Assembly: GCA_037440465.1 (NCBI GenBank)
Contig: JBBIUB010000001.1
Coordinates: 96,001 to 160,000, forward strand
Origin: Coprothermobacterota bacterium
GTDB taxonomy: Bacteria; Coprothermobacterota; HKB111
Reading direction: 5' to 3'
Length of the DNA: 64,000 nt
This document shows positions 1 to 17,046 of this stretch, piece by piece. The notes under the pieces are model-generated. The model ran no database searches and was not told where the DNA came from. It saw nothing but the letters and a program-made list of their open reading frames with translations. A program made the position numbers and the translations under genes. Within the stretch, counting starts at the first letter, position 1; each line of letters begins with the position of its first letter.

Positions 1-980
1 TGTATTAGGGAAGCGAGACGCATTTCCATGAATACATCCAGATTATTATTACAGGGAGCACCGTCAGCACCTAACGAAACATCAATACCCATTTCCAACA
101 TTTTTGGGATTGGTGCTATACCTGATGCCAGTTTAAGGTTAGAAGAGGGACAGTGGAGTACTTTTGTTCCAGTATTCTTGAGCGTTTCCAGCTCTTTTTC
201 GGTTACATGTACACAGTGAGCTAAAAGAAGATTTTCTCCAGTTAGTCCTAACGAATCGAGGTATTCAATATTATCCTTTCCAAATCTTTCTTTTACAAGT
301 CTCACTTCTTCTCTGTTTTCTGAAGCGTGAGTGTGAAGTAAGAGGTTATTTTTTTGAGCTAATTCTTTAGCACTAATAAGGAGTTCTTCAGTAGAAGATA
401 TAACAAACCGAGGTGTAACTGCATAACGAATCCTACCTCCATCTTTAAGATGAAATGTTTTTATGAGTTCTTCAGTTTCCCTGAGAGTATTTGAAGTTCT
501 TTCTTTTAACAGATCAGGACTATCAGATCCAAAATCCATCATTACTTTCCCACAAGTGGCCCTTATTCCTGTCTCAAGTAGAACATCAAAAACCACTTCG
601 CTATGGTGAACAGTAGCCATATCTAATATACAGGTGGTTCCACCTCTAATGAGTTCTGCCACTCCCAGTAATGCTGAAATCCTTATAGTTTCTTTATCAA
701 GAGAAGTTTCAAAAGGTAAGATTCTTTTTTTTAACCAGTCTAAAAGCTCCAGGTCATTTGCTTGATTGCGAAAAAGTGTCTGAATTAAGTGAATGTGAGT
801 CTGTATCAACCCTGGAATTACCCATTTACCTTCTGCATCTATTACCAGGTTAGCTGTGTTCCGGGAACTTTCAAGCTCTTTTATAATGTTCCCTTCTACA
901 TAAATATCGCCTTTGAACACCCTTCTTCGGGGGTCCATAGTAATTAATAGTCCATTTTTTACCAGAATGGATGAGTTCAT
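1..980 (-). CDS. Metal-dependent amidohydrolase, MTA/SAH or 5'-deoxyadenosine deaminase / SsnA-like (runs off window start)
   Basis: Not in ORF track. Manual translation from ATG at 980 (overlaps upstream TGA): MNSSILVKNG...PGLIQTHIHL...GGTT...HTHASE...AHCVH...HCPSSN...GADGAPCNN. Confidence 0.88.
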   Translation of the reverse strand, partial: MNSSILVKNGLLITMDPRRRVFKGDIYVEGNIIKELESSRNTANLVIDAEGKWVIPGLIQTHIHLIQTLFRNQANDLELLDWLKKRILPFETSLDKETIRISALLGVAELIRGGTTCILDMATVHHSEVVFDVLLETGIRATCGKVMMDFGSDSPDLLKERTSNTLRETEELIKTFHLKDGGRIRYAVTPRFVISSTEELLISAKELAQKNNLLLHTHASENREEVRLVKERFGKDNIEYLDSLGLTGENLLLAHCVHVTEKELETLKNTGTKVLHCPSSNLKLASGIAPIPKMLEMGIDVSLGADGAPCNNNLDVFMEMRLASLI

Positions 981-1990
981 AAACGTCCATTTCCCATTAT
1001 CAGAGCCATCAATGCTTTCTGAATGTGGAGCCTGTTTTCTGCCTCATCTTTAACTACTGAATGTGGTCCATCAATGACCTCATTAGTGACCTCAAATCCC
1101 CTGTCAGCAGGAAGGGGGTGCATATATAGAGCGTGTTTTTTAGTTAGGCTCATCATCTGAAAGTCGCATCTCCAGGAAGGATATTTCTTAATAAGTTCTA
1201 TTCCTTCTTTTTGATCCTGTGTGTATACTAAAGGACCCCAGGACTTAGGAATAACTACATCAGCATCCTTGAAAGCCTCATCCATACCTTGAGGATCGCT
1301 GACTATTTTGAGGTTTCCCCCACCATCCTGTGCCCTTTGTTGTGCCAGCTCTACAATCTCTTTTTGAAGATTAAACTCGGGAGGATGAGCTAAAACCACA
1401 TCTATACCATAACGGGGCATAAGAGTAATCAAACTCTGAGGGACAGAGATAGGTCTAACATAATTAGGGGCATGGGTCCATGATACGCCAAGCTTTAAAC
1501 CTTTTAGATTGCGGGTGGAGAATTTTTCCATCATAGTCAATAAATCTCCCATTATCTGAGGAGGATGATAAACATCATCCTGCATGTTGATAACAGGAAT
1601 AGAAGCGTACTTTTCAACTTCCCTGAGGTATTTATGTCCTTCATTATAAGTACAATATCTTATAGATATCCCATGACCATAACGACTCAAAACCTCTGCT
1701 GTATCTTTTGGACCCTCTCCATGAGAAATCTGCAAGGCAGAAGGGCTCAAAAAATGGGCATGACCACCAAGCTGGGTCATACCAGCCTCAAAAGAGTTTC
1801 TTGTTCTGGTAGAAGAGTCAAAAAATATCATAAATAGGGTTTTATTCTTAAGTATCTCGTGGGGGAAACCAAGACCAAAAAGCATTTTAAGGTAAAAAGC
1901 TACCTCTATTATGGTATCCAGCTCTTCTCTATTCCAATCTTCATGTGTTATAAAATGTCTTCCTCTTAAGTCAGTTCGCAAAACAGTCAC
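977..1990 (-). CDS. YgeW-like (knotted) carbamoyltransferase
   Basis: STRTR, HPPQ and HPLPADR motifs. SWTHAPNYVRPISVPQS and PKSWG resemble YgeW rather than true OTC. Real start may be TTG at 1981, since GGAG abuts the GTG. Confidence 0.82.
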   Translation of the reverse strand: MTVLRTDLRGRHFITHEDWNREELDTIIEVAFYLKMLFGLGFPHEILKNKTLFMIFFDSSTRTRNSFEAGMTQLGGHAHFLSPSALQISHGEGPKDTAEVLSRYGHGISIRYCTYNEGHKYLREVEKYASIPVINMQDDVYHPPQIMGDLLTMMEKFSTRNLKGLKLGVSWTHAPNYVRPISVPQSLITLMPRYGIDVVLAHPPEFNLQKEIVELAQQRAQDGGGNLKIVSDPQGMDEAFKDADVVIPKSWGPLVYTQDQKEGIELIKKYPSWRCDFQMMSLTKKHALYMHPLPADRGFEVTNEVIDGPHSVVKDEAENRLHIQKALMALIMGNGRL

Positions 1991-2020
1991 CTCCTTATAA
2001 TAAATCTAAAATTTTCACTG

Positions 2021-2051
2021 GAATCCTTGACCCCTTGAATCCTTGACTCCT
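2021..2051. repeat. Short tandem repeat (about 4 x 8-mer, GAATCCTT/GACCCCTT)
   Basis: gaatccttgaccccttgaatccttgactcct in the intergenic gap. Confidence 0.7.
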
Positions 2052-2068
2052 ATGTTTATTTAAATATG

Positions 2069-3271
2069 TTACCCATTTCTTTGGCTGAAAACATGTGGAA
2101 ATAGAGCATAAAACTCTGTAGCCTTTAAAAGATGGTCAACAGGAACCTGATCATTGCTGGTATGAGCATACTCTTCCTCACCAGGTCCATACCCTATAGT
2201 TGGAATGCCTGCTTTACCCATCCAGTATACTCCGTTGGTACTGAAATTCCACCTACCCAACGTAGCTTTCTCGCTCGTTAATAAATAATGTGTTTCCTGA
2301 GCTACTTTGACAAAGGGAGACATTTCAGGAAGAGCCCAGGAAGGAAAATAGTGTTCTAATTTAAGGTTCATGCCGGTATAAGCCTTAAAAACAGACTCTA
2401 TAACTTCTATCTTTCCTCCATAAGGCTGAATAGCTTCCTCAATCTCTTTTTTTACTCTTTCCAGAGTCTCACCCGCTGTCAACCTTCTATCAATAAAAAG
2501 AGTAGCTTTTGCAGGTACAGCGTTAATAGATGAAGTATCTACCTTCAAGTCTGAAACAACGAGGCTACCCTTCCCAAGAAAATGGTCTTCCAGAAAATTT
2601 TTATTCAACTCTTCCAATTCTAATAGAGCCTTTGAAGATTTAATAAGTGCGTTTTCCCCTAAATGAGGCATGGAAGCATGAGCAGAACGACCGGTAAAAG
2701 ATATGGAAAATTCAACTCTACCTCTATGACCACGATAAATTCTAAGTCCTGTAGGTTCACCAATAACAACACCCTCTGGTCTCATGCCTTTATTTTCTAC
2801 AAGCACCTGGCTGGCTAAACCGTCGCATATTTCTTCAGCATTACCTTGAAGGTAAAGAGTAAATTCGGAAGGAAGAAGATTTAGCTCTCTGGCAATTACC
2901 ATACCAAAAAACATAGAGGCAAAACCACCTTTTTCATCACCTGCCCCCAATCCATAAATTACTCCATCTTCTTCGTAAGCATTAAAAGGGTCTCCCTTCC
3001 AGGAATTAATATCTCCAACGCCTACTGTATCTAAATGAGCATCGTAAACCATGGCTCGGGGCCCTTCACCTATTCTAATAAGAGCATTACCCATAGGGTC
3101 TCTTTCAAAATCCAGTCCCCATTGGATCGCCTGGTTTTCAACAAAGGTTACTATATCTTTAATGTCTCCACAAATGCTTTTAATACCAATTAAATCCCTT
3201 AATAAATTTTTTATCTCATTCTTTTTTTTAAAACCAACTTCCTTAATCTTATTTATCAACTCTTCTTTCAT
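2069..3271 (-). CDS. YgeY-family M20 metallo-hydrolase
   Basis: DAHLDTVG, DEKGG, EEICDG, EPTGLRIYRGHRGR, FSTNGV, GPGEEEYAH. Confidence 0.85.
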   Translation of the reverse strand: MKEELINKIKEVGFKKKNEIKNLLRDLIGIKSICGDIKDIVTFVENQAIQWGLDFERDPMGNALIRIGEGPRAMVYDAHLDTVGVGDINSWKGDPFNAYEEDGVIYGLGAGDEKGGFASMFFGMVIARELNLLPSEFTLYLQGNAEEICDGLASQVLVENKGMRPEGVVIGEPTGLRIYRGHRGRVEFSISFTGRSAHASMPHLGENALIKSSKALLELEELNKNFLEDHFLGKGSLVVSDLKVDTSSINAVPAKATLFIDRRLTAGETLERVKKEIEEAIQPYGGKIEVIESVFKAYTGMNLKLEHYFPSWALPEMSPFVKVAQETHYLLTSEKATLGRWNFSTNGVYWMGKAGIPTIGYGPGEEEYAHTSNDQVPVDHLLKATEFYALFPHVFSQRNG

Positions 3272-4291
3272 CTATTCAATAACCTCTATTTTTTCAAGTA
3301 TAGCAATTTGTTCTTCAGTAAGCCCTGTTTGATGTTCCCTTTCTGGAATCTCTACTACCTTTTCTTCTCCTAATAGTGCTGTAGAAAGGTACCGAAAGCC
3401 ATGATCATTAAACATGGTTATCACTCTTTTAAATTTAGGATGTTTCTTCTTGAGCTTCAAAGCCCCAACCACGTTAGCTCCAGTAGATATTCCAACAAAA
3501 AGACCTTCTTCTCTGGACATTCTGTTAGCCATATCAATAGCTTCCTGGGATGAAACAAGAACCACACCGTCAAGAAGGGTAATATCAAAAATAGAAGGTA
3601 CAAAACCATCACCTATTCCTTCTATCTTATGGTAACCCCAACCCCTCCCAGCTAAAATAGCGCACTCTTTAGGTTCTATGGCAAATATTCTAATTGAGGG
3701 GTTCTTCTCTTTCAAAAACTTGGCAACACCTGTAATTGTCCCTGCACTACCTTGCGTTGCTATAAAGGCATCAATAGTTCCACCTGTCTGTTCCCATATT
3801 TCGGGACCAGTTGTCATATAGTGAGCCTCTACATTTAAAGGATTATTAAACTGATTTACCCAAAAATATTTGCCCGGTTCCACTTCTAATAATTCCTGAA
3901 CTTTCTTAAGAGTAAGATCTACATCAGATTCTGCTCCTGGTGTAAACATTATTTCTGCTCCAAAGGCTCGGATAGCTTTCTTCCTTTCTTCACTCATACC
4001 ATCGGGCATTATTATCAAAACTGGATGACCCAAAAAAGCTCCCATCATAGCTGTAGCAATTCCCGTATTGCCTGTAGTAGCTTCAAGAATAGTTATTCCA
4101 GGTTTTAGCTTTCCTTCCTTTATTGCTGAGGTTAGAATGTGGAGAAGGATTCTGTCCTTCAGGCTACCTGAAGGATTTAGAAATTCACACTTCCCAAGAA
4201 TCTCCAATTCCTCCTTAACTCCAATCCTGGTAAGTTTTAAAAGAGGAGTTTTACCAATAAGCTGAGTTAGGTTCTCTTTATACTTTGACAT
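3272..4291 (-). CDS. Cysteine synthase-family (fold type II) PLP enzyme
   Basis: IGKTPL, NPSGSLKDR (PLP Lys), EATTGNTG, NQFNN, HKIEGIG, EEGLFVGISTGA. Confidence 0.85.
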   Translation of the reverse strand: MSKYKENLTQLIGKTPLLKLTRIGVKEELEILGKCEFLNPSGSLKDRILLHILTSAIKEGKLKPGITILEATTGNTGIATAMMGAFLGHPVLIIMPDGMSEERKKAIRAFGAEIMFTPGAESDVDLTLKKVQELLEVEPGKYFWVNQFNNPLNVEAHYMTTGPEIWEQTGGTIDAFIATQGSAGTITGVAKFLKEKNPSIRIFAIEPKECAILAGRGWGYHKIEGIGDGFVPSIFDITLLDGVVLVSSQEAIDMANRMSREEGLFVGISTGANVVGALKLKKKHPKFKRVITMFNDHGFRYLSTALLGEEKVVEIPEREHQTGLTEEQIAILEKIEVIE

Positions 4292-4324
4292 TAAAATTAC
4301 CTCCAGATATTTTTATAAACCTCC

Positions 4325-5521
4325 TCATATCCGAGGAAAGGGCTTGCTTAAAGCATGAGTTGGGCAGAGAGAATAGCAGAGTCCGCAGCCCACGCAACAG
4401 TCTTCATCAAGAAAAAGATAGCTTCTACCGTTTTCCTCTTTGATACTCAAGGCTTCACTCACGCAGGTTTTTACACAGAGTCCACAGGTTTTACACTTTT
4501 CTTCATCAACTACAGTTGCTACCCGTTCCACCACTTCATCTTGACCATCCTTCAGGGAGCGAAGGTAAAGACCCTGGATATCCTTCACAGAAGTGAAATC
4601 ATGCTCTTCTAACCACTCCTCTAACTCCCTTACCACTCTGCCGAAGATAGAAGGTCCCTCTAGTATGGCACCAGTACATATCTGAACCATAGAAGCTCCT
4701 GCCATTAAAAATTCCACTACATCACTCCCCGATAAAACACCGCCTACTCCAATAACTGGCCTTTTTGTAGAACGAGCAATGTCAAAAACAATCCTCAGAG
4801 CTAATGGTTTAATAGGTGCTCCTGATATCCAGCCAAAGCCATACTTGCTTCCCAGTACAGGTTCAACCTTATCAATATCAAAAGTTAACGTAGGACCTAA
4901 GGAATTGATAGCCACAAAACCATCTACATAAGGTTCTAAGGCTTGTACTAACTCAATAACATCAGGGACATTTGGAGAAATCTTGGGAAATATTGGGATA
5001 GATACAGCATTTCTAAGGGATTTAGCTGTATCTACCAAAGGTTCCAGACTTTTACCCAGGTAATGCAGGGAAAACTCAATAGCTGAAACCCCCTTTTTCT
5101 CCACTAAAGGACCTATCTCCCTAACTTGAGCTGGAGAATATCCTATGCTGGCAATCACTGGAAGATTAGAGCTAAGGGCTATATCATACTCCTTATTAAG
5201 CCAGTCTTCTAAAGGTTTTTCAGACCAGAGTTCAGTATTTAGAAGAGCCTGGCTTAATTTGATCTTAACCCTCGAGGCTTTAACTAACTTACCTTGAATT
5301 ACCGTAGATATCTCATGAAGCAATTCCCCTCTTTGTGGAACCATCATATTAGGTTTAGGTACTTTAGCAGGGTTGGTTGATACAGTCTTGGTAACCAAAC
5401 CACCTGCACCACCTTTAGCCATCTTTAAAAGGGTATCACCGTCACGGGAAGGAGTGCCTGCTGCCACCAGAATCGGGTTCGGGAATCTGATTCCACAAAG
5501 ATCTACCCTAAGATCCACCAT
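4325..5521 (-). CDS. DHOD/dihydropyrimidine dehydrogenase (PreA)-like FMN oxidoreductase with C-terminal 2x[4Fe-4S] domain
   Basis: NPILVAAG, LVTKT, NTELWSE, KISPN, AINS, ISG, GVGGV; CKTCGLCVKTC and CVGCGLCYSLCP. Confidence 0.8.
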   Translation of the reverse strand: MVDLRVDLCGIRFPNPILVAAGTPSRDGDTLLKMAKGGAGGLVTKTVSTNPAKVPKPNMMVPQRGELLHEISTVIQGKLVKASRVKIKLSQALLNTELWSEKPLEDWLNKEYDIALSSNLPVIASIGYSPAQVREIGPLVEKKGVSAIEFSLHYLGKSLEPLVDTAKSLRNAVSIPIFPKISPNVPDVIELVQALEPYVDGFVAINSLGPTLTFDIDKVEPVLGSKYGFGWISGAPIKPLALRIVFDIARSTKRPVIGVGGVLSGSDVVEFLMAGASMVQICTGAILEGPSIFGRVVRELEEWLEEHDFTSVKDIQGLYLRSLKDGQDEVVERVATVVDEEKCKTCGLCVKTCVSEALSIKEENGRSYLFLDEDCCVGCGLCYSLCPTHALSKPFPRI

Positions 5522-7451
5522 CCTTCCTCCTTATAACCCTACCATAACTTTCCAGCTCCAGAGCTACATCTTCCAAGCCAGCTTCAGCCAGGGTTTCGTA
5601 ATAAAAATTACTCGTCTCAGAATCATATTTCCTGACTTCATAATATTCCTTAAGCATTGGTTCCAGTTTACATACCTGCCCTTTAGCTGGGCCAGAGGGC
5701 ATTGGTTCTTCGGTAAAACGAGGGTGTAAGGTATCTTTTGAAAGTCCAGCTCTCATATTAAAGGCTCTTCTAAGGTGAGCGATTCTTCTTGCTAACTTTC
5801 TTACTTCCTCAACATCTAAGTATTTTCTAAGACCTGTTGAGTAAGCAATAACTTTAGAGAACTCTGGAAAATAATAAATGGGAGGCCACATAACCCCGTA
5901 CTTACAGAGAATAAGAGAATCACAGATAGCAAAGGCTTCCTCCTGGTCAGCTACCATGTATCCTTTATAAGTTTCATCCAGTAGATTACAGCAGATATCA
6001 GGATCAAGATGAGGAAACCGCTCTAAGGATTTGTTTCTGAAGCCCAGTTCATCAATGATACTCAAGCTTCTAAGGTGATCTGCCCCCCTTACATTGATTG
6101 CATAAGTAAGTCCAACAGATTTATGAGCTCTTGGATCTTGAGCAGAGGCGTCCATACCATTTACTTCTATAGCATACCTTTCCGCTCCTTTTCCAATCTT
6201 CTTTGAAGCAAGATAAACCCCTTCAGCCAGTACATCACCAATTCCTTCTCTTCTTACTATCATCTCAAGAAGTTTAAGAGCTACATCTCCGTCTCCCCAT
6301 TTAATCTCTAAACCATCTGTATCTTCTTTTGTCAGGATGCCTTTCTCAAAAAGCTCCATAGCAAAAGCTACCATAGAACCAGTAGAGATAGTATCAACCC
6401 CATAAGCATTAGCAAGATAATTAGCCCTAACAGGTATGTCCAGGTCAGAAACCATGATATTAGGACCCCAGGCATCTACTGTCTCATATTCTGGTCCTTC
6501 AGACTTCGTGCCAGAATACTTTCCTTCTTTTATCAAGGAGAAGTACTTACATTGAATGCCACAACCAAAACATGATTTATGGGCTATACGATAACCTTTC
6601 CTTATAGCTTCTCCACCTACCTTCTCAATTTCCGGGTAAAATCCATCGTAATGATTTTTAACTGGAAGTCGACCAATGGTATTCATGGCATCCATAAGAC
6701 CGGTAGTACCATATTTTCTGGAAGTATGTTTAATGTAGTTGGACCATTCTCCATATTTATGTTCTTTAAACATTTGGGTTGAAAAATCCATAAATTCTTG
6801 AGAATGTTTGACTCTTACAGGAAGGCTACCTCTTACTGCAATTGCTTTAAGATTCTTTGAGCCCAGAACAGCACCTATGCCTGTTCGTCCTGCAGCTCGA
6901 TAGTAATCAGACATTACTGCAGAAAAACGAACCAGTTTTTCACCTGCAGGACCAATGGTAAGAACTCTGATATCTGGATCATTATGTTCTTTTTCCAGCA
7001 TAGCAGTAGTATCAAAGGTTGTTTTTCCCCATAAATGGGAAGCGTTTCTTATTTCTACTCTTTCATCTTCTATAAAAAGATATACTGGAGAATCTGATTT
7101 ACCAGTAATAACAATTAAATCATAGCCAGCATACTTAAGCTCAGGACCAAAAAAACCACCTGCATGAGCTTCTCCCCAGCGAAGCGTTTGAGGAGATAAA
7201 GACGCTACCATATATCTACCCGAAGGCGGAAAGAGAGTTCCAGTTATTGGACCCACTGCCAAAACAAAGACATTCTCAGGAGATAATGGGTTTATACCTT
7301 GCTTTATATTATCCCAGAGAACTTTAGCAGCAAAACCGTCTCCACCAAGATAATCTTTAGCCCAAGAAATAGGTAATTCTCTTTTTTCTACTTTCCCTGA
7401 AGATAGGTCTACGAAGATATACTTACCCTGATAACCTCCAAGAGGATACAT
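5508..7451 (-). CDS. Tungsten aldehyde:ferredoxin oxidoreductase (AOR/WOR) family, large subunit 2
   Basis: YLGG, GPELKYAGYD, IGPAGE, AAGRTG.GAV.GSK, CFGCGIQC, GPEYET, DTIS, RGADH. Confidence 0.92.
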   Translation of the reverse strand: MYPLGGYQGKYIFVDLSSGKVEKRELPISWAKDYLGGDGFAAKVLWDNIKQGINPLSPENVFVLAVGPITGTLFPPSGRYMVASLSPQTLRWGEAHAGGFFGPELKYAGYDLIVITGKSDSPVYLFIEDERVEIRNASHLWGKTTFDTTAMLEKEHNDPDIRVLTIGPAGEKLVRFSAVMSDYYRAAGRTGIGAVLGSKNLKAIAVRGSLPVRVKHSQEFMDFSTQMFKEHKYGEWSNYIKHTSRKYGTTGLMDAMNTIGRLPVKNHYDGFYPEIEKVGGEAIRKGYRIAHKSCFGCGIQCKYFSLIKEGKYSGTKSEGPEYETVDAWGPNIMVSDLDIPVRANYLANAYGVDTISTGSMVAFAMELFEKGILTKEDTDGLEIKWGDGDVALKLLEMIVRREGIGDVLAEGVYLASKKIGKGAERYAIEVNGMDASAQDPRAHKSVGLTYAINVRGADHLRSLSIIDELGFRNKSLERFPHLDPDICCNLLDETYKGYMVADQEEAFAICDSLILCKYGVMWPPIYYFPEFSKVIAYSTGLRKYLDVEEVRKLARRIAHLRRAFNMRAGLSKDTLHPRFTEEPMPSGPAKGQVCKLEPMLKEYYEVRKYDSETSNFYYETLAEAGLEDVALELESYGRVIRRKDGGS

Positions 7452-7453
7452 TG

Positions 7454-7942
7454 CTAACCTTCCTTCTGTATAAGAGAAATATATTTCAACATCTTTTCTG
7501 CTCCCAGCCTCTTTTTTCTTAAGCCAACTTTATCTGCTGCGGCATATTCAATAGCCTCAACAGGACAAAACTCTACACATTTAGGGGTTCCACCACATAA
7601 ATCACATTTCATGGCAACTTTCTTTAAAGAATGAACCGAAGCACCCCCAAAAGGGCAAACCATAATACAGGTATAACATCCAATACACTTCTTTTCATTT
7701 AAAAGTACAACTCTCAACTGACTATCCCTATAAAGAGCCCGAGAGGGGCAAGACTCCAGGCACAAAGCAGTTTCACATTGCTGGCAAGTTATAGGTATGT
7801 CTATACCATCTCTCTTAAAACTGACCACCGAAATCCGGGAAAGCCTTGGATTAAAGACACCTTCGTGCTCAAAAGAGCATGCCAGTTCACAGATACGACA
7901 ACCGGTACATTTATCAAGATCTACTATAAGTAATTTATCCAT
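7454..7942 (-). CDS. 4x[4Fe-4S] ferredoxin-like subunit (WorS/CooF-type)
   Basis: CTGCRICELAC, CQQC....CLESCP, CIGCYTCIMVCP, CDLC.....CVEFCP. Confidence 0.9.
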   Translation of the reverse strand: MDKLLIVDLDKCTGCRICELACSFEHEGVFNPRLSRISVVSFKRDGIDIPITCQQCETALCLESCPSRALYRDSQLRVVLLNEKKCIGCYTCIMVCPFGGASVHSLKKVAMKCDLCGGTPKCVEFCPVEAIEYAAADKVGLRKKRLGAEKMLKYISLIQKEG

Positions 7943-8170
7943 TTAACCTCCACCTATAGACCAGAGAATTTTAACCTGGTCTCCGTTCTTTAATGGTGTT
8001 TCCATGCTCTTGAAACTTTCATTTACCAGGATTAGGAAAGGGGCAAAAGAAGGAAGTTCTAAATGAGTTATTAGATCTGAAACAGTTGAGTCTTCTAACA
8101 ACCCTATTACTTCTTCCCTACCCTGGTAAAATTCCCGTAATGGTCCAAAAACGCTTACTTTAATCTTCAT
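7943..8170 (-). CDS. moaD: MoaD/ThiS sulfur carrier
   Basis: 75 aa, ILVNE, C-terminal GG, located between AOR genes. Confidence 0.8.
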   Translation of the reverse strand: MKIKVSVFGPLREFYQGREEVIGLLEDSTVSDLITHLELPSFAPFLILVNESFKSMETPLKNGDQVKILWSIGGG

Positions 8171-8346: not shown

Positions 8347-10242
8347 TTATTCATAATAGCCTTCCGGTAAATCAGGGATAAGCTCATCTAATCCTAATTC
8401 TTTGAGTGTTGAAGGTCTGGGAATACCGTCCAAGGTCCATCCTCTCTCTTTATAATAATCATCTAACATATAAGACAATTCTACAACCTGCCCTTTAGCG
8501 CCACCTTCTGTGGCTTTTTCCTTTAAGAGCCGCTCCGGTAGCGTATCTTCTTTACGAGAAAGACCCAAACGTACGTTGTACATCCTCTGGAGATTAATAA
8601 TCCTCTCGCCTAACTTTTCAAGTTCTTTTATACTATAATCCCAACCTACTGTCAATTTCAGGGCTTTTGTAAGCTCTTCATAACCTAAAGTTGGTGGAAC
8701 CATCGTCCCATATTTGCAAACTACTGATGACTCTACTACAGCTCCCCAGTTCTCATTAACATAAATCATATGCCCCTTATGGACAGGGTTTAATCTGTCA
8801 GCCATTTCGGGCATATACTTTGCTCCATAGATTCTTTCTACTTCTTCGTCAAATCCACCTTCATCCAAAACTGGAAAAGCATAAAGATGGTCAGCTCCCC
8901 GAGCAGAAACTGCTATGGCTAAACCCATGGATTTTTGACCTCTTGGCTCCTGGCCAGCTATTTCCATTTTTTTAACTGCCATCACATAATTTATTGCTTC
9001 CCCACCTATTATCTGAGCTGCTTTAAAAGAACCTTCAGCTAAGAGGTTAGCTAAGGGGCCTTCACGATAAGCGATGCGTTTAGTGAGTTCAACGACTGTC
9101 TCAGCATCTCCAAAGAAAAGATCTAAATCATCTCTGTACTCAACGGGTAGGAGTCCAAGATCTGCCAATTCCATAGCAAAGGAAATGACAGCACCCGTAC
9201 CGATAGTATCTAAACCAAGATTATTGCAGAGATAACCAGCATAAATAATCGCTTCAAGATCGTTAACACCACAACGAGAACCAAGGGCAGCTACTGTCTC
9301 AAACTCAGGACCCCCTGTAATACAGCTATATTTACCTTCTTTTACCTGGCAATACCTCCCACAACGCTGAGCACAGGAGAAATCAGCCCGAGGTTTTATC
9401 AGATATTTATCTCTGAGCTCTTTGCCACTTATTAGATGAGCATCTTTAAAATAACCTGAGCGGAGGTTGTTTGTAGGGAGCCTTCCTATTTCAGACATAA
9501 TCTCTGTAAGACCAGCAGTACCATAAATCACACGTGTACCTGCAATTGGGTCTTGAATAAGTTTCTGAATTAATTCTTTCATATAAGGAAGATAATTTAT
9601 CTTATCAAAGACTTCTATACCCTGGTTTCCTTTAACTACTATTGCCTTAACTTTTTTTGAACCCATTACAGCTCCCACTCCTGAGCGAGCTGCTACCCTA
9701 TCCCTATCGTTCACTATTGAAGAAATAAGAACCAATTTTTCACCTGAAGGACCTATGGATATAATCCTCACATCACTCCCAAGTTCATTCTTTATTATAT
9801 CTTCTGTTTCATGAACAGTCTTACCCCAGATATGAGTGGCTTCCTTAATTAAAACCCTATCATTATTAATATAAATATAAACAGGTTCGGCTGAACTACC
9901 TTCAAGCACCAAACCATCATATCCAGCGAATTTAAGTTCAGGAGCCCAATGGCCTGCAGAATGTGCTTCACCCCATATGCCAGTCAAAGGTGATTTTGTG
10001 GTAACCACATAGCGATTGCCCTGTGGCCAGAGAGTACCAGTCAAAGGACCGGTAAAGACGAATAATTTGTTTTCTGATGATAAAGGTTCTACTTCTGCAC
10101 CTACTTCATGATAAAGAAAATAAGAAGCAAGTCCCGTTCCCCCCAGATATTTAATCAGAAGTTGATCATCCAAACTTTCTTTTTTGTAGCTTTTATCATC
10201 CAGATTTATTCTAAGAATCTGTCCTCTGTATCCCTTATTCAC
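8347..10242 (-). CDS. Tungsten aldehyde:ferredoxin oxidoreductase (AOR/WOR) family, large subunit 1
   Basis: KSPLTG, APELKFAGYD, IGPSGE, AARSG.GAVMGSK, GPEFET, DTIG, RGADH. Confidence 0.92.
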   Translation of the reverse strand: MNKGYRGQILRINLDDKSYKKESLDDQLLIKYLGGTGLASYFLYHEVGAEVEPLSSENKLFVFTGPLTGTLWPQGNRYVVTTKSPLTGIWGEAHSAGHWAPELKFAGYDGLVLEGSSAEPVYIYINNDRVLIKEATHIWGKTVHETEDIIKNELGSDVRIISIGPSGEKLVLISSIVNDRDRVAARSGVGAVMGSKKVKAIVVKGNQGIEVFDKINYLPYMKELIQKLIQDPIAGTRVIYGTAGLTEIMSEIGRLPTNNLRSGYFKDAHLISGKELRDKYLIKPRADFSCAQRCGRYCQVKEGKYSCITGGPEFETVAALGSRCGVNDLEAIIYAGYLCNNLGLDTIGTGAVISFAMELADLGLLPVEYRDDLDLFFGDAETVVELTKRIAYREGPLANLLAEGSFKAAQIIGGEAINYVMAVKKMEIAGQEPRGQKSMGLAIAVSARGADHLYAFPVLDEGGFDEEVERIYGAKYMPEMADRLNPVHKGHMIYVNENWGAVVESSVVCKYGTMVPPTLGYEELTKALKLTVGWDYSIKELEKLGERIINLQRMYNVRLGLSRKEDTLPERLLKEKATEGGAKGQVVELSYMLDDYYKERGWTLDGIPRPSTLKELGLDELIPDLPEGYYE

Positions 10243-10636
10243 GGAAATCCTCCTTTAGCTCTATGACTCCAGAGGGACAAATTGTGACACATTTCTCACA
10301 GACCTCGCAGATGAGGGGTGTTTTTTTCTCAGGATGAAGACTCACAGCTTCATAAGGACAGATTTCTTCACAGATTCCACATAAGATGCATAGTTCCTCA
10401 TCAATAGATACCACTCCCTCTTTTTTTCTCAAAGCCAGAGTCGAGCAATTATCAATACAAGGTGCGGGTTCACAATTTTGACAGAACTTCACTTCGTCCC
10501 TGCTATCATCAAAACGTTTGGTTTTAGCCCGAGATACAGCAGGATTTATCACTCCATAATGAACGAAAGAACAAACAGATTCATGTATCCTGCACCCCGT
10601 ACAAACAAGAGGGTTAACCTTCAAATGGCGACCCAT
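10235..10636 (-). CDS. Polyferredoxin-like small subunit
   Basis: CTGCRIHESVC, CQNC....CIDNC, CILCGICEEICP, CEVCEKCVTICP. Confidence 0.88.
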   Translation of the reverse strand: MGRHLKVNPLVCTGCRIHESVCSFVHYGVINPAVSRAKTKRFDDSRDEVKFCQNCEPAPCIDNCSTLALRKKEGVVSIDEELCILCGICEEICPYEAVSLHPEKKTPLICEVCEKCVTICPSGVIELKEDFRE

Positions 10637-10818: not shown

Positions 10819-11619
10819 ATGGAAAGGTATAAAGTACAAACAAGATTCAAGGAAATAGGAGAAGGTGGTCAGGCTAAATTAGCTGAAGGAAGAGTTTGTA
10901 TTATTGGCCTGGGGGGTCTTGGGGGGTTTTTAAGCGAACTTCTTACCAGGGCGGGTGTTGGTCGAATAACCCTTATAGATTTTGATTCAGTTGAAATATC
11001 CAACCTACAAAGACAGATTCTTTACAACGAAGATGATGCAAATGAAGGAAAGTTAAAAGTAGAAACCGCATTAGAGAAACTTAGTAAAATAAACAGTGAA
11101 ATAGACTTAGTTGGTTATTCTCTGTACCTTTCTCCGCAGAATGCTGAAAAATTCTTACTTGGTCATGACTTGATCCTTGATGGAACTGACAACTATGGAA
11201 CCCGTTATTTATTAAATGACATTGCTGTTAAACATTCAATCCCCTGGATATTCCAGGCAGTTGCTGGAGCTTATGGTATGGCATCAATGATAATTCCTGG
11301 GGAAACACCTTGTCTGAAAGAAATATTACCTGAAGATATTAGCTCTCAGGCTCTACATTGTTCCACTGTAGGTGTAATCTCACCTATCATAGCATCAACA
11401 ACTGCTTTTACTATTACTCAAACATTAAAGTTTTTAACCCAAGGCAAAGAAAACATCGATAGAGGTCTGGCTTTGATAGACCTTTGGCATCCATCTTTTG
11501 AATTAATAGAATTGAATAAAAACCTTCAAGATCCTTGTCCTGTATGCGAATTGAGAAAATTTGAATACCTGGAAGGTGATAAATTTCCCAAACCAAGTGT
11601 TAAAGGATCTGCTTGTTAA
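10819..11619 (+). CDS. MoeB/ThiF-family adenylyltransferase
   Basis: IIGLGGLG, SNLQRQ, DGTDN, CSTVG, CPVC; divergent from moaD/AOR. Confidence 0.88.
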   Translation: MERYKVQTRFKEIGEGGQAKLAEGRVCIIGLGGLGGFLSELLTRAGVGRITLIDFDSVEISNLQRQILYNEDDANEGKLKVETALEKLSKINSEIDLVGYSLYLSPQNAEKFLLGHDLILDGTDNYGTRYLLNDIAVKHSIPWIFQAVAGAYGMASMIIPGETPCLKEILPEDISSQALHCSTVGVISPIIASTTAFTITQTLKFLTQGKENIDRGLALIDLWHPSFELIELNKNLQDPCPVCELRKFEYLEGDKFPKPSVKGSAC

Positions 11620-11634
11620 TATAAAGGAGGAAGA

Positions 11635-11973
11635 ATGTATAAGGTTTATGAAAAAGAAGTTAAACCCGAAATAGTTGAAGAGGGTAAAGCTGCTACTATC
11701 AAATGGATATTACATAAAGGTATTGGGGTACCAAACTTTGAGTTGCGTATTTTTGAGATTCAACCAGGCGGGCGTACACCTGAACATGTGCATCATTGGG
11801 AACATGAAGTGTATGTATTATCTGGTAATGGGAAGGTTAAAAGTGAAAGGGGGGATGCAGAGTTAAAACCTGGAGTGGCAGTATTTGTTCCTCCTCAGGA
11901 AAAACATGTTTTTGTAAATGATGGGGAGGAAGAATTAAAGTTTATCTGTGTTATACCTCGTAGAGAGGGATAA
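11635..11973 (+). CDS. Cupin-domain protein
   Basis: PEHVHHWEHEVYVLSG and VPPQEKH cupin motifs; GGAGG RBS. Confidence 0.85.
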   Translation: MYKVYEKEVKPEIVEEGKAATIKWILHKGIGVPNFELRIFEIQPGGRTPEHVHHWEHEVYVLSGNGKVKSERGDAELKPGVAVFVPPQEKHVFVNDGEEELKFICVIPRREG

Positions 11974-11981
11974 AAATACTC

Positions 11982-12011: not shown

Positions 12012-12079
12012 CATATTGTAATTATGCAGTACTCATTTATAATAAACTGCAAAATTTAAAAAAAATTAGGAGGTATAAA

Positions 12080-13342
12080 GTGAGGAAATTTTTAATAGGT
12101 TCGTTGGTTGTAACTTTAATTTTAGGTTCACTTTCACTGTTTTTTTCTCTTACCTCTAACAGCCTTGTAGAAGCTGGAGAAAAAATCAAGATTGGTTTGG
12201 TAACTGATGTAGGTGGGAGAGGAGACAAATCGTTTAACGATTCTGCCTTAAGAGGTCTGGAAAACTGGGCTGCTGGCTTAAAGATGGTTGCTGGTGTTGG
12301 TTATCAAGCATTAACCGATGCAGAGTACAACAAAATCATTGAAGATGAAGCACCAGGTTTGCTGGATCGTGGTATAAGGAAGTTTGATGTCGAACCCATG
12401 ATTCTTGAATCAAAAGCTAGTGAAGACTATATACCTAATCTTAAAACCTTAGCTGATCAGGGTTGTAAACTCGTTATTGGCGTTGGTTTCATGCTTACTG
12501 ATGCTATTGAAGAAGTTGCCCCTCTCTATCCAAACACTTACTTTATGTTAATTGATGGTTTTATTGAGACACCTCCTCCAAATGTAGTATGCTACTTATT
12601 CAAAGAAGAAGAAGGCTCATTCCTGGTTGGAGCTCTGGTTGGTAAAATGACCACTACAAATAAAGTCGGCTTCGTTGGAGGAATGGACTTATTTATCATT
12701 CACAGATTTGAAGCAGGTTATAAAGCAGGCTTAAAAACAGTTAATCCCGACGCAGAAACATTTGTAGGATACACAGGAAATTTCACCAGCGCTGAAGATG
12801 GTCAGAAAATTGCTAAAACACAGTTCGACCAGGGAGCAGACATTGTCTACCATGCTTCCGGTGCTTGTGGAATTGGTGTAATCGAAGAAGCAAAAGGAAG
12901 ACCTGCAGGCTACTACGCTGTTGGAGTTGACTCTGACCAGGATTACCTCGCTCCTGGTAAGGTTCTTACATCGATGATAAAGCACGTAGATTACGCTGTA
13001 TGGCTTTCCATAGAATCAGTTGTAATTAATACCTTCACAAGTGGCCATGTTACCCTTGGTGTTAAAGAGGGTGGCGTTGGTATTTCACCATTAAAATATA
13101 CTAAAGACTTAATTCCATTAGCCGTCCTTGATGAAGTAGAAGAACTTAAAGACATGATAATTGCTGGCGACATCAAAGTTCCAGCATCAAGAGAAGAGTA
13201 CGATGAGTGGGTAAAAACGCTTGCGGAAGAACCAGAACCAGAAGAACCTGCTAAAAAGACAAATTGGTTGTTAATTGCAGGACTTATTGTTGTTGCTTTA
13301 GCTATCGTTAAATTCCTCTTTTTGAAAGGTAAGAAAAAATAG
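12080..13342 (+). CDS. BMP/PnrA-family nucleoside ABC transporter substrate-binding protein
   Basis: DVGGRGDKSFND, GVGF, FKEEEGSF, GVDSDQ, TSMIK; signal peptide and C-terminal TM tail. Confidence 0.9.
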   Translation: MRKFLIGSLVVTLILGSLSLFFSLTSNSLVEAGEKIKIGLVTDVGGRGDKSFNDSALRGLENWAAGLKMVAGVGYQALTDAEYNKIIEDEAPGLLDRGIRKFDVEPMILESKASEDYIPNLKTLADQGCKLVIGVGFMLTDAIEEVAPLYPNTYFMLIDGFIETPPPNVVCYLFKEEEGSFLVGALVGKMTTTNKVGFVGGMDLFIIHRFEAGYKAGLKTVNPDAETFVGYTGNFTSAEDGQKIAKTQFDQGADIVYHASGACGIGVIEEAKGRPAGYYAVGVDSDQDYLAPGKVLTSMIKHVDYAVWLSIESVVINTFTSGHVTLGVKEGGVGISPLKYTKDLIPLAVLDEVEELKDMIIAGDIKVPASREEYDEWVKTLAEEPEPEEPAKKTNWLLIAGLIVVALAIVKFLFLKGKKK

Positions 13343-13381
13343 CAGGAGTATAACTTTTTAAAATACACTTTTAAGCCAAAG

Positions 13382-13413
13382 GAAAAGGGTGGGAAGAAAT
13401 CCCACCCTTTTCT
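13382..13413 (+). terminator. Hairpin after BMP gene (partial terminator / mRNA stabiliser)
   Basis: AAAAGGGTGGGA-agaaa-TCCCACCCTTTT. Confidence 0.75.
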
Positions 13414-13430
13414 TAACGGAGGTGAAAGAT

Positions 13431-14966
13431 TTGGTAAATGCTATAGAAGTAAAAAATATTACAAAAGTATTTCCAGAAGTAGTAGCAAACGATAACATTT
13501 CCTTTGAAATAAAAAAAGGTGAGATATTCGCAATTATTGGAGAAAATGGAGCTGGTAAAACAACTCTAATGAACATTCTTTATGGCTTGTACACTCCTGA
13601 TAGCGGAGATGTTTATATTGGTGGGAAGAAGATTATTCATAACTCACCGAAAAAAGCCATAGATTTAGGTGTTGGCATGGTCCACCAACATTTTATGCTT
13701 ATTCCAAAATTTTCAGTCACAGACAATATTGTATTGGGACAAGAATTTACTGTAAATGGTCTTGTATTAGATCAAAAAAAATCAATTCAAAGCGTAAGAG
13801 AAATATCTGAGAAATATAAATTAAAAGTTGACCCTGAGGAGAAAGTAGAAAATCTTTCAGTTGGTGTACAACAACGAGTTGAGATACTTAAAGTCCTCTT
13901 CAGAGGAGCAGTTATTCTTATTCTGGATGAACCCACAGCAGTTCTTACTCCTCAAGAGTCAAGGGAGCTCTTTGATACCATTAGAGCATTAAAGGAGCAA
14001 GGTAAAACAGTCATATTTATTTCTCACAAACTAAAAGAGGTTCTGGAAATAGCAGACAGAATTGCTGTTTTGAAAAATGGAAGAGTTGTGGGAATCAAAG
14101 GAAAGGAAGAAACAAGTGAAAAGGATTTAGCAAGAATGATGGTAGGGAGAGATGTTATATTTGAATCTCCAAAAAAGTATGCTGAACCCGGTGAAGTAAC
14201 TTTAGCAGTTGAAAACATTACTATCATTGGAGATAAAGGAATACCTACTGTCAAAAACATCTCATTTAAATTAAGAAAAAGTGAAATCCTTGGAATCGCT
14301 GGAATAGAAGGTAATGGGCAGGCTGAACTGGTCGAAGCTTTGACAGGTCTTCGTCCGATTGAGTCAGGGACAATAAAAATAAATGACCAGGTCATAGAAG
14401 AGTTTACTCCCTGGAATATCAGGAAGAAAGGGGTAGCTCATATCCCTGAAGATAGAAGGAAAAGAGGTCTAATATTACCCTTTACTGTTTCATACAACCT
14501 AATTCTTGGAAGGCAGAGAGAAAAGAATTTTTCGAGAAGTATCTTACTTAATAATTCAGGTATATCTAAATATTCTGAAGGTAAAATTGATGAGTTTGAT
14601 ATTAGGCCAAGAAATAAAAACCTAAAAACAGAATCCCTGTCAGGTGGTAATCAACAAAAGATAATCGTAGCAAGAGAAATATCTTATAATCCTGAAATAC
14701 TTATCGCTTCCCAGCCCACAAGAGGACTCGATGTAGGTGCTATAGAATTTGTTCATAAAAGGCTCGTGGATCAAAGAGAATTTGGAAAGGCAATTCTCCT
14801 GATTTCTTTAGAGCTTGAAGAAATAATGATGTTATCAGATAGAATTGCAGTTATTTATAACGGTGAGTTCGTGGGAATTCTCAATAGAAATGAAGCATCA
14901 GAAGAAGAAATAGGCTTATTGATGTTAGGAGCTAAAAGGCAACCTAAAGAGGAGATGAGAGTATGA
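13431..14966 (+). CDS. Nucleoside ABC transporter ATP-binding protein (duplicated ABC)
   Basis: GENGAGKT, DEPTAVL, LSGGNQQK, QPTRGLD; in-frame TTG at 13431 after GGAGGTG. Confidence 0.9.
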   Translation: MVNAIEVKNITKVFPEVVANDNISFEIKKGEIFAIIGENGAGKTTLMNILYGLYTPDSGDVYIGGKKIIHNSPKKAIDLGVGMVHQHFMLIPKFSVTDNIVLGQEFTVNGLVLDQKKSIQSVREISEKYKLKVDPEEKVENLSVGVQQRVEILKVLFRGAVILILDEPTAVLTPQESRELFDTIRALKEQGKTVIFISHKLKEVLEIADRIAVLKNGRVVGIKGKEETSEKDLARMMVGRDVIFESPKKYAEPGEVTLAVENITIIGDKGIPTVKNISFKLRKSEILGIAGIEGNGQAELVEALTGLRPIESGTIKINDQVIEEFTPWNIRKKGVAHIPEDRRKRGLILPFTVSYNLILGRQREKNFSRSILLNNSGISKYSEGKIDEFDIRPRNKNLKTESLSGGNQQKIIVAREISYNPEILIASQPTRGLDVGAIEFVHKRLVDQREFGKAILLISLELEEIMMLSDRIAVIYNGEFVGILNRNEASEEEIGLLMLGAKRQPKEEMRV

Positions 14967-16099
14967 ATGAACTATTACATTGGTGGAATAGAAAAAGGGA
15001 GAATGTCCTGGATTTTGCTGTACCCATAATGGCAATATTAACGGGGTTTTTTGTAGCTGCTATTTTAATAAAAGCTACTGGAAAAAGCCCTATAGATGCA
15101 TATAGGCTATTAATTCAAGGCGCTTTTGGGAGAACCTTCCAGGAATTACTATCCTTAAGGTTAGCTGGTGAAGGGTTGTTGAAGGGAGGGATTCTTGCTC
15201 TAACTGGACTCTCAGTAGCTGTAGCTTTTAAATCCGGTTTATTTAATATCGGAGCTGAAGGGCAGTTCATAGTAGGTTCTATTACTGCAGCATTTTTGGG
15301 CTTTAAATTACATTTCCCACCTTGGATAAATATCCCTATTATTCTCCTGGCTGTAATACTCACATCTGGATTATATGGAGCTTTAGCTGGTTATCTTAAA
15401 GTAAAAAAAGGTGTTCATGAAGTTATAACAACCATTATGTTGAACTGGACAGCGGTTCACCTCATAGAAAATTGGATAGTTGTTGGACCCTTCAATATCT
15501 TAAGATATTATCCCAGAGCAATCCGAGCGGGGACTCCTTATGTTCAGGATAATTCTCGCTTGTTTCCTCTTTTTGAGGGTACAAGATTGAACGCCACAAT
15601 TTTTATTGCTATTATAGCTGTAATAGTGGTTTACTATCTATTAAACAAGACCGTCACTGGTTACGAAATACAGGCAACTGGAAAAAATCCAGAAGCAGCG
15701 AGATATTCGGGTATAAAAACAGGAAAATCAATGATATTAGCAATGTTTATCTCTGGAGCTCTTGCTGGATTAGCCGGAGCATGTATGATACTCGGCACAG
15801 AAAAACAGTACCCTGGCGTATTCAGACCTGGTTATGGATTTGATGGAATTGCTATGGCTTTAATCGGAGCTACATCTCCAATTGGAACCTTTGCAACATC
15901 TCTTTTCTTTGGTTTTCTACGATCAGGAGCTACAAGCATGCAGCTTATTGGAATCCATAAAACATTTGCAGATATTATCCAGGGTACAGCAACCCTTTTT
16001 GTTGCCAGTCAGCTGGCAATAAGATATTTGATTATGAGGTTAGAAAAACGTAGAAAACCTGAGGTTAAAGAGATTATAAAAAGCGAGGTGCCCAAATGA
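14963..16099 (+). CDS. Nucleoside ABC transporter permease
   Basis: GLFNIGAEGQ, HEVITTIMLN, GYGFDGIA. Confidence 0.9.
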   Translation: MNELLHWWNRKRENVLDFAVPIMAILTGFFVAAILIKATGKSPIDAYRLLIQGAFGRTFQELLSLRLAGEGLLKGGILALTGLSVAVAFKSGLFNIGAEGQFIVGSITAAFLGFKLHFPPWINIPIILLAVILTSGLYGALAGYLKVKKGVHEVITTIMLNWTAVHLIENWIVVGPFNILRYYPRAIRAGTPYVQDNSRLFPLFEGTRLNATIFIAIIAVIVVYYLLNKTVTGYEIQATGKNPEAARYSGIKTGKSMILAMFISGALAGLAGACMILGTEKQYPGVFRPGYGFDGIAMALIGATSPIGTFATSLFFGFLRSGATSMQLIGIHKTFADIIQGTATLFVASQLAIRYLIMRLEKRRKPEVKEIIKSEVPK

Positions 16100-17046
16100 G
16101 TATAATACAGATAATCATTTCTGTAATCTCTTCACTTCTAAAATTTGGGACACCCTTAATTTTAGCTGGCTTGGGTGGAGTGATTACTGAAAATGCAGGA
16201 GTTGTAAATATTGCTCTTGAAGGAATGATGCGGATAGGTGGATTTTTTGCTGTCTTTGGTTCTTATTTAACAGGAAATCCCTGGTATGGTTTAATATTAG
16301 GACTAATTGCTGGAGCTATAGCTGGATTACTCCATGCATATATTTCTGTTTCTCTTAAAGGAAATCAGATTGTAAGCGGAGTGGCCATAAACATATTCGC
16401 TCTTGGAGGAATTACATTTTTTTTGGAGAGATACTTTAACACAACTGGTCATTCACCTTCAGTTAATTCCTTTATAGACAAACCACTTTTCCCAATATTA
16501 GTTAAAATACCTGTTATAGGAGAAATATTTTCTGTTATGAACATATTTGTTTTTCTGGCAATAACACTTCCCTTCATAATTCACTTCTATCTTTATAGAA
16601 CTTCCTGGGGGTTAAGACATCGTTCAGTTGGCGAAAATCCTAAGGCTGCTGATACTATGGGAATAAATGTATATCTTGTCAGGTATATCGCAGTTATTAT
16701 CTCTGGAGCACTGGCAGGTTTATCCGGAGCATCTATTTCTATCGGTCAGTTAAGCCTTTTTGATAACCATATGCCTGCTGGCCTTGGTTTTATTGCCCTT
16801 GCAGCAATGATTTTTGGAAAATGGAAACCCATCGGCACTCTAATTGCTGCTTTTTTCTTTACCATGGCTACTGTGGCTCAGATATATATCCAGACACTTG
16901 CTCCTCACATTCTTAAAATAATACCCAGAGGCTTTTTCTTAGCTTTTCCATATATTCTCACCATATTAATCCTTGCTGGTTTTGTTGGAAGAGCAGTAGC
17001 ACCAGCTGCTGATGGTGTTCCATATGAGAAGGGAGAAAAACTCTAA
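16096..17046 (+). CDS. Nucleoside ABC transporter permease
   Basis: GVVNIALEGMM, VGENP.AAD..G, GFIALAA.IFG.W. Confidence 0.9.
   Translation: MSIIQIIISVISSLLKFGTPLILAGLGGVITENAGVVNIALEGMMRIGGFFAVFGSYLTGNPWYGLILGLIAGAIAGLLHAYISVSLKGNQIVSGVAINIFALGGITFFLERYFNTTGHSPSVNSFIDKPLFPILVKIPVIGEIFSVMNIFVFLAITLPFIIHFYLYRTSWGLRHRSVGENPKAADTMGINVYLVRYIAVIISGALAGLSGASISIGQLSLFDNHMPAGLGFIALAAMIFGKWKPIGTLIAAFFFTMATVAQIYIQTLAPHILKIIPRGFFLAFPYILTILILAGFVGRAVAPAADGVPYEKGEKL

Follow-up and report, generated by a model that had tools for sequence, protein, structure and literature searches.

Ten closely packed minus-strand genes run from position 10636 to the left edge of a 64,000-nucleotide stretch of a Coprothermobacterota genome (hereafter the window, positions 96001-160000 of contig C1 of the source genome, G000; gene coordinates are window positions unless labelled otherwise). 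Leaning slightly in its favour, we read this locus from its gene context as the core of a variant reductive uric-acid/2,8-dioxopurine pathway, in which two enzymes of the aldehyde:ferredoxin oxidoreductase (AOR) family, AOR1 and AOR2, would serve as ferredoxin-coupled purine ring (de)hydroxylases. In the order of the transcript (5' to 3') the genes encode a ferredoxin (Fd1), AOR1, MoaD, a second ferredoxin (Fd2), AOR2, a UacX-like reductase, a CysK-like enzyme, YgeY, a protein resembling ornithine carbamoyltransferase (OTC-like) and a deaminase, and they are spaced in turn by an overlap of 8 bases, a gap of 176, no gap, 2 bases, an overlap of 14 (AOR2 over the start of the UacX-like gene), a gap of 33, no gap, a gap of 78 and an overlap of 4. 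Genes were called as open reading frames (ORFs) and then assigned by Pfam and NCBIfam profile searches with the cut-offs of the models; the source assembly measures 1.28 Mb, with a completeness of 94.5%. The run, together with the moeB, cupin and BMP-importer genes that diverge from it, lies in the place and on the strands which a first-pass annotation of the window had given.

The published route, as set out in its two sources, begins with the dehydroxylation of urate to 2,8-dioxopurine by XdhD/DOPDH (PMC12507026; bioRxiv 10.1101/2025.04.24.650524); the product is then reduced by YgfK or, in C. difficile, by the PydA homologue UacX, which has no FAD domain (PMC12507026). SsnA and HyuA open the rings to 2,3-diureidopropionate, the ureido groups are removed by YgeW (with carbamate kinase) or UacY, plus YgeY, and YgeX converts diaminopropionate to pyruvate (PMC12507026; bioRxiv 10.1101/2025.04.24.650524), while XDH, a second molybdenum/selenium (Mo/Se) enzyme, feeds hypoxanthine and xanthine into urate (bioRxiv 10.1101/2025.04.24.650524). 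With the C. difficile-type pathway (XdhD, UacX, SsnA, HyuA, UacY or YgeW+YqeA, YgeY, YgeX) our genome shares YgeY, SsnA, a carbamoyltransferase with a carbamate kinase that could yield ATP, and a fold-II pyridoxal phosphate (PLP) enzyme as candidate for the last step; a reductase of UacX-like architecture stands where YgfK would be, a hydantoinase-like gene accompanies SsnA, and electrons would come from ferredoxin, which has been proposed for the clostridial enzymes as well. The window differs in that the cluster has two AORs, polyferredoxins and MoaD/MoeB and no XdhD/DOPDH, an unknotted OTC-like carbamoyltransferase instead of YgeW and a CysK-like enzyme instead of YgeX; SsnA/hydantoinase and, separately, ArcC are encoded away from it, and a DadD-type deaminase and a BMP importer are additional. 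The window thus holds a bacterial version with YgeY, an OTC-like substitute for YgeW, a CysK-like enzyme in a genome without YgeX, and a Mo-type Xdh retained elsewhere. The replacement of YgfK by UacX is already published and is not new; the new part is a clade of the AOR family tied to purine breakdown, and a literature search, limited in coverage, gave no paper in which enzymes of this family are connected with the degradation of purines.

In the proposed scheme, in which the AORs are placed by gene context and the other enzymes by homology as well, uptake would proceed through the BMP-type ABC importer and deamination through the purine-type deaminase. AOR1 with Fd1 and AOR2 with Fd2 would add or remove ring oxygens to give 2,8-dioxopurine, e.g., by C6 dehydroxylation of urate or xanthine and by C8 or C2 hydroxylation, with electrons passing via Fd1, Fd2 and the ferredoxin pool, and with MoaD and MoeB supplying the pyranopterin cofactor. 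The ferredoxin-dependent UacX-type reductase would saturate C4=C5 of 2,8-dioxopurine, and ring opening would fall to SsnA and a hydantoinase, encoded together on another contig. The OTC-like carbamoyltransferase would then take one ureido group out as carbamoyl phosphate, yielding ATP via ArcC, YgeY would hydrolyse the other, and the CysK-like PLP enzyme may release pyruvate and ammonia. By analogy, the steps proposed for the AORs would be those of the Mo/Se enzymes (XDH, DOPDH/XdhD) in E. coli and Clostridium, and removal of a lactam oxygen would formally resemble the reduction of an acid to an aldehyde by AOR at very low potential; the two AORs would likewise parallel the two pterin hydroxylases, XDH and DOPDH, of the known pathway (bioRxiv 10.1101/2025.04.24.650524).

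The AOR clade and its gene neighbourhoods

Both AORs carry the two family domains (AFOR_N, PF02730, and AFOR_C, PF01314) over their full length, AOR2 (5508-7451, minus strand) at 265.3 and 381.0 bits and AOR1 (8347-10242, minus strand) at 254.2 and 407.6 bits. A scan with AOR2 over one genome per species retrieved 80 loci, in which every ORF was compared with the window proteins and with the pathway proteins of a further genome, G035. A UacX-like gene (45-56% identity) is present in 19 of the 30 loci whose AOR shares 46% identity or more with AOR2. A further locus above this threshold, L041, has YgfK (883.7 bits, cut-off 835.3), DpaL (630.3 bits, cut-off 532.25) and SsnA around the AOR, all above cut-off, with the AOR2 orthologue in the place of XdhD in an otherwise canonical YgfK-SsnA-YgeX cluster. 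Many loci in this range also hold SsnA-like, hydantoinase-like, DadD-like, OTC-like and ThrC-like PLP genes and a second ferredoxin-AOR pair. Below 46% identity, one of 50 loci (L062) has a weak UacX-like gene, and SsnA or hydantoinase was found in none of the 50. According to the record titles, the carriers are Bacillota, Anaerolineae, 'Humimicrobiia', Endomicrobia, Nitrososphaeria, Bathyarchaeia, Geothermarchaeota and Asgard (Thor, Hermod, Prometh) metagenome-assembled genomes (MAGs).

In a FastTree phylogeny of 105 AOR homologues from the surveyed loci, a quick method whose rows are relatives rather than independent events, AOR1 and AOR2 fall in sister subclades (15 and 35 rows) of one clade of 50 with a local support of 99. 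A UacX-, SsnA- or HyuA-like gene lies within 10 kb in 40 of the 50 rows of this clade, as against 3 of the 55 outside it. Within the AOR2 subclade, UacX lies at most 2.5 kb from AOR2 in 20 of 27 cases (directly downstream in about eleven, one gene away in about eight), and among the other seven, four come from short contigs (6.3 kb or less). When metagenomes were scanned with AOR1, 44 loci were retrieved, mostly of distant AORs; the two which belong to the clade both have UacX downstream, while pathway genes were found in none of the 42 non-clade loci, which serve as a negative control. Conserved co-location of AORs with pathway genes, which the first-pass annotation had wanted checked by a neighbourhood survey, is borne out across phyla and domains by the survey and the tree.

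Chance adjacency is contradicted by the same synteny survey, which extends across phyla and Archaea, and by the tree counts. In this explanation, an AOR/MoaD/MoeB unit would have come by historical accident to lie beside purine genes gained by lateral transfer, the two being functionally unconnected; in our opinion it is very improbable. It can draw on the close relatives G001-G005, which have no counterpart of AOR2, UacX or the OTC-like gene, so that the region looks like an acquired island, and on the promoter-like site within the 176-base gap between AOR1 and MoaD. Against this stand the overlapping start and stop codons in the run, a Bacillota MAG (L030) that repeats the order Fd1-AOR1-MoaD-Fd2-AOR2-UacX at 56-69% identity, and the recurrence of the Fd-AOR2-UacX unit in Archaea. 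Fd2 (7454-7942, minus strand), the polyferredoxin partner of AOR2, AorA/HydN-like with 16 conserved Cys, is conserved immediately upstream of AOR2 orthologues, and MoaD is also present in L030, L041, L043 and L038.

The archaeal clusters L031 (Nitrososphaeria), L037-L040 and L056 (Asgard) encode two OTC-like carbamoyltransferases and a ThrC-like PLP enzyme, and YgeY was not seen in the available stretches of these clusters; both ureido groups may therefore leave as carbamoyl phosphate there. L031 carries three AORs. A different AOR-heterocycle neighbourhood was observed in L163 (G158:C5:42000-61800), where an ordinary AOR (44% to AOR1, without the clade signatures) adjoins Xdh subunits, a DPD-like gene (34%) and an amidohydrolase similar to SsnA (28%).

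Aldehyde or purine chemistry of the AORs

The best solved-structure matches of both AORs are true AORs, with 411 and 456 bits for 1AOR of Pyrococcus furiosus (PfAOR). With PfAOR and with AorABC of Aromatoleum aromaticum (8C0Z) they share the full AFOR_N/AFOR_C architecture and the catalytic Glu/His pair, and they differ from both in having their own clade signatures, a purine-catabolism context and no FAD subunit adjoining AOR1 or AOR2. The A. aromaticum operon presumably also has a polyferredoxin partner and a MoaD gene, as the window does. The signatures, located by alignment near the cofactor and cluster region, are a stretch rich in proline inserted behind the fourth cluster Cys (WPPIYYF in AOR2), relative to other AORs in the tree, and a Gln where PfAOR has Tyr427. 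AOR2 keeps the [4Fe-4S] ligands CxxCxxxC and the fourth Cys, corresponding to what we take to be C288, C291, C295 and C494 of PfAOR, mapped via structure alignments, while AOR1 has Asp at the first position, as do 15 of 15 members of its subclade, and Phe for PfAOR Tyr312. The eight best non-clade hits of AOR1 in the phylum of G041 (42-45% identity) are without the Asp and insertion signatures.

Fd1 (10235-10636, minus strand; Pfam and NCBIfam), a polyferredoxin and the partner of AOR1, is the first gene of the run. MoaD (7943-8170, minus strand), a sulfur carrier of the MoaD/ThiS family for pyranopterin cofactor synthesis, reaches 42.6 bits with ThiS (cut-off 22.5), and the divergent MoeB/ThiF-family adenylyltransferase (10819-11619, plus strand), assigned to MoaD activation, scores 213.8 bits with ThiF and reaches no equivalog cut-off. 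Precedent for non-aldehyde chemistry in the AOR family is given by BamB (4Z3W, class II benzoyl-CoA reductase), which acts on an aromatic ring; it is a distant relative (257 and 200 bits), with other partners (BamC-I) and a CoA-ester substrate. The job proposed for the AORs would be that of the Se-dependent Mo hydroxylases XDH and DOPDH, i.e., reversible insertion and removal of purine ring oxygens at a metal centre bound by pyranopterin, with carriers other than NAD(P)H (bioRxiv 10.1101/2025.04.24.650524), from which the AORs differ in their unrelated fold and in a bis-pyranopterin cofactor, normally with tungsten and with no molybdopterin cytosine dinucleotide or Se.

Several points weigh against the purine assignment. 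Both AORs keep the equivalents of catalytic Glu313 and His448 ('PEYE'/'PEFE' and 'GADH' align to PfAOR), with which ordinary aldehyde chemistry remains compatible, and we know of no AOR-family enzyme acting on an N-heterocycle. Tungsten in AOR1 and AOR2 is predicted from family membership, and WtpA was not found in the source genome at its 94.5% completeness, other tungstate transporters not having been searched for. The context count of 15 out of 15 for the AOR1 subclade is biased, as all its rows came from the flanks of AOR2 hits, and AOR1 gave no further clade member in 301 genomes of the phylum of G041. Four Thermoprotei MAGs (L051, L052, L055, L058) have an AOR2-clade gene and a polyferredoxin with no purine genes nearby, and SsnA was not found in these four genomes; these members may have a different substrate.

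Further opposing points concern Xdh; the first-pass annotation had put two tungsten AORs where a Mo/Se-Xdh would be. On contig C2 (L017, G000:C2:36961-43702) the source genome retains an XdhB-XdhC-XdhA operon of the Mo type, accompanied by genes for an NCS2 nucleobase permease, MocA and XdhC, and therefore the AORs cannot simply replace Xdh here. This operon is of the generic XdhABC kind (TIGR03313 308.5 bits, cut-off 1101.9; XdhA 550.8, cut-off 780), and within 10 kb around the cluster no XdhD/DOPDH-type Mo hydroxylase was found, the cluster itself having no PF02738 protein; in this organism the Mo-Xdh may do part of the work. The Mo-binding domain of the xanthine-oxidase family (PF02738) was searched for in 20 other carrier genomes, 19 with a clade member and L062 with a related AOR beside a UacX-like gene. 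It was matched in two (G051 and G054), which together with the single match in the source genome makes 3 of 21, and was not found in the other 18, which is to be read as 'not found' rather than absent, since the completeness of these MAGs is not reported. The placement of AORs instead of Xdh is thus at most partly true in the source genome, and a stand-in role across the carriers is plausible from these gene inventories.

If AOR1 and AOR2 were ordinary aldehyde:ferredoxin oxidoreductases, they would take an aldehyde from a late variant step or from amino-acid fermentation, and would provide reduced ferredoxin for UacX and for a net-reductive pathway. Their conserved Glu and His, their nearest solved structures and the Xdh retained in the source genome speak for this, as do the adjacency of Fd2, AOR2 and UacX and the fact that UacX, without an NAD(P)H domain, needs a low-potential donor (PMC12507026). 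No aldehyde intermediate appears in the pathway as described (PMC12507026), and Pfam and NCBIfam searches assign none of the cluster genes to an enzyme that forms aldehydes. Furthermore, a general supply of ferredoxin would hardly account for a dedicated clade that has two or three paralogues in each cluster, and the 18 carriers without a PF02738 match would be left without any enzyme making 2,8-dioxopurine. For these reasons we find the ordinary reading unlikely, though it is the most serious of the alternatives. As for the preferred reading in its wider form, namely that the AOR1/AOR2 clade would consist of ferredoxin-coupled, probably tungsten-dependent purine hydroxylases/dehydroxylases and would provide a route without Mo hydroxylases or selenium, we judge the chances to be evenly balanced on present sequence comparisons.

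The other enzymes of the proposed pathway

The UacX-like reductase (4325-5521, minus strand; Pfam and NCBIfam) combines the FMN domain of PydA and dihydropyrimidine dehydrogenase (DPD) (DHO_dh, PF01180) with a C-terminal 2x[4Fe-4S] domain and has no FAD/NADPH domain. It aligns to residues 530-819 and 913-998 of pig DPD (1GT8), and the three-residue 'SCP' loop with the catalytic Cys671 of DPD is deleted, a position confirmed by the C671S and C671A entries. This bears out the earlier description of a Cys-less DPD-like reductase where YgfK would be, a variant already published as UacX, whose described architecture it fits (PMC12507026); the assignment as a putative UacX was made by architecture. 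The protein falls short of the PreA/DPD model NF006183 (177.2 bits, cut-off 335), besides having no catalytic Cys loop.

The OTC-like carbamoyltransferase (977-1990, minus strand; OTCace_N and OTCace domains) reaches no NCBIfam cut-off. It had been labelled YgeW-like, which does not hold at family level: NF005538 gives 198.6 bits (cut-off 453) and TIGR03316 186.3 (cut-off 500), and the protein has 337 residues as against a YgeW model length of 396. ArgF was likewise rejected (OTC model 257.4 bits against 306), and the protein has no ornithine SMG loop and HPLP for HCLP, which we take to be the ornithine carbamoyltransferase motifs; both are present in the true ArgF of the same genome. The carbamoyl-phosphate motifs STRTR and HPxQ are kept. 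In G035 an orthologue (49%) is flanked by YgeY and ArcC, inside a canonical XdhABC-SsnA-adenine deaminase-hydantoinase cluster that also has a BMP importer, and in G034 another (57%) lies between YgeY and a hydantoinase. From its neighbours and motifs we regard the enzyme as acting in place of YgeW and not as a member of the YgeW family. YgeY itself (2069-3271, minus strand), an M20 hydrolase assigned to the ureido group, passes both of its models (TIGR03526 410.7 bits, cut-off 321.5; NF009555 408.7, cut-off 321), which together with the G035 orthologue upholds the urate/purine-pathway logic proposed for the locus at first.

For the CysK-like fold-II PLP enzyme (3272-4291, minus strand), the NCBIfam cysKM model is reached (348.0 bits, cut-off 344.15), and the cysK equivalog falls below its threshold (342.5, cut-off 350.95); what we take to be the PLP-Lys, Asn-loop and Gly-loop motifs were seen by eye. 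YgeX (diaminopropionate ammonia-lyase) was not found among the PALP-fold proteins of the source genome, of which there are two, this one and a TrpB-like protein, so that the CysK-like enzyme is the sole candidate for the YgeX step. Its role is nevertheless uncertain, because the L041 orthologue (56%) adjoins a true diaminopropionate ammonia-lyase. The earlier proposal of a CysK-fold enzyme where YgeX would be therefore stands as regards the missing YgeX and is weakened by L041, and conversion of diaminopropionate to pyruvate is kept as an uncertain candidate function.

The window holds the N-terminal 326 residues of the last gene of the run (3-980, minus strand), which extends 369 bases past the left end; the full-length protein has 449 residues and passes NF005557 at 595.3 bits (cut-off 522). 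It is a purine/nucleoside deaminase of the DadD/MtaD type (TRZ/ATZ group), with orthologues of 36-49% identity in other AOR clusters, and the former label of amidohydrolase gives way to this assignment; as SsnA (183.6 bits against 444) or hydantoinase it was rejected. A hydantoinase had been looked for left of the window and none is there. Contig C11 (L016, G000:C11:2969-5667) has instead SsnA (NF005540 516.2 bits, cut-off 444; TIGR03314 497.7, cut-off 455.5) and adjoining it a hydantoinase-like cyclic amidohydrolase (allantoinase 351.1, cut-off 357.85; D-hydantoinase 291.3, cut-off 393.25). The purine pathway of the source genome is thus spread over at least three loci. SsnA likewise lies elsewhere in other genomes whose AOR cluster is without it (G041 and G043 exceed the cut-off, G049 and G057 fall slightly short of it), so this split arrangement is common to them and the source genome.

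Carbamoyl phosphate had been suggested as a possible source of ATP through the ArcC gene at 48052, and this gene (48052-49008, minus strand, beside the true ArgF) indeed encodes a true carbamate kinase (TIGR00746 386.5 bits, cut-off 358.25), the lone match in the source genome by tblastn, at 46 kb from the cluster. Upstream of ArgF/ArcC lies an ORF of 448 residues (49941-51287) with no NCBIfam match at E<=1e-25, which could be the missing partner of an ATP-yielding unit of the arginine/citrulline type.

That the cluster degrades some other N-heterocycle or ureido compound (a pyrimidine, pterin, hydantoin or modified purine), with the AORs acting on it or on its aldehyde products, we hold to be quite unlikely. 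UacX is a homologue of PydA/DPD, and the OTC-like, CysK-like and deaminase proteins match no characterised urate-pathway equivalog, all of which would suit such a substrate; the first-pass annotation, too, had named purines, pyrimidines and other ureido compounds alike as candidates. On the other hand, SsnA passes its equivalog in the source genome, G041 and G043, YgfK and DpaL pass theirs beside AOR2 in L041, and the clusters have BMP importers and a purine-type deaminase as conserved members. Moreover, a pair of ring-opening cyclic amidohydrolases and a pair of enzymes that cleave ureido groups are what a bicyclic purine would call for, and not a pyrimidine.

Flanking genes and meaning of the finding

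The divergent BMP/PnrA-type ABC importer (12080-17046, plus strand; Pfam and NCBIfam) comprises a binding protein, an ATPase and two permeases, and probably carries nucleosides or purines; a transporter of this type is also present in the purine clusters of L030 and G035. The small cupin between it and moeB (11635-11973, plus strand; Cupin_2) has weak ureidoglycine-aminohydrolase matches at best (29.9 bits against an NCBIfam cut-off of 200) and is not conserved, being near one of the 80 loci retrieved with AOR2. A search of the window with Rfam gave no riboswitch or other element ahead of the operon, two tRNAs being the sole matches, and promoter and terminator scans gave counts not above those in shuffled sequence.

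To the left of the window follow an MFS transporter, an HlyIII-family protein, ArsC and then a third AOR, AOR3, which with a polyferredoxin and HoxU-like and NuoF-like subunits (L001 12507-17047, G000:C1:88507-93047) resembles an NAD(P)H-linked AOR complex. AOR3 may belong to the same purine system, since its L030 orthologue (62%) comes immediately after UacX in the purine cluster. A gene for a Hel308-type (archaeal-like) helicase is present at L001 8851-11040 (NF002654 817.6 bits, below the cut-off of 887). Further along the window, histidine-utilisation genes (HutI, glutamate formimidoyltransferase and HutH) lie at 28795-30925 and 40068-41582 and a hypoxanthine phosphoribosyltransferase gene at 45817-46353; the organism looks like a fermenter of amino acids and nucleobases from its gene content.

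If the purine role of AOR1 and AOR2 is true, they would be the first AOR-family enzymes on N-heterocycles, and the catalytic range of the family would extend beyond aldehydes and benzoyl-CoA. It would also explain how purines enter the 2,8-dioxopurine pathway in many uncultured anaerobes without xanthine-dehydrogenase-type enzymes, and the locus gives a directly testable enzyme pair with defined candidate substrates. Finally, it would mean a Mo- and Se-independent, possibly ancient fermentation of nucleobases in subsurface and sediment Archaea and Bacteria, with Asgard, Bathyarchaeia, Nitrososphaeria, Endomicrobia and Bacillota as the carriers of this route.

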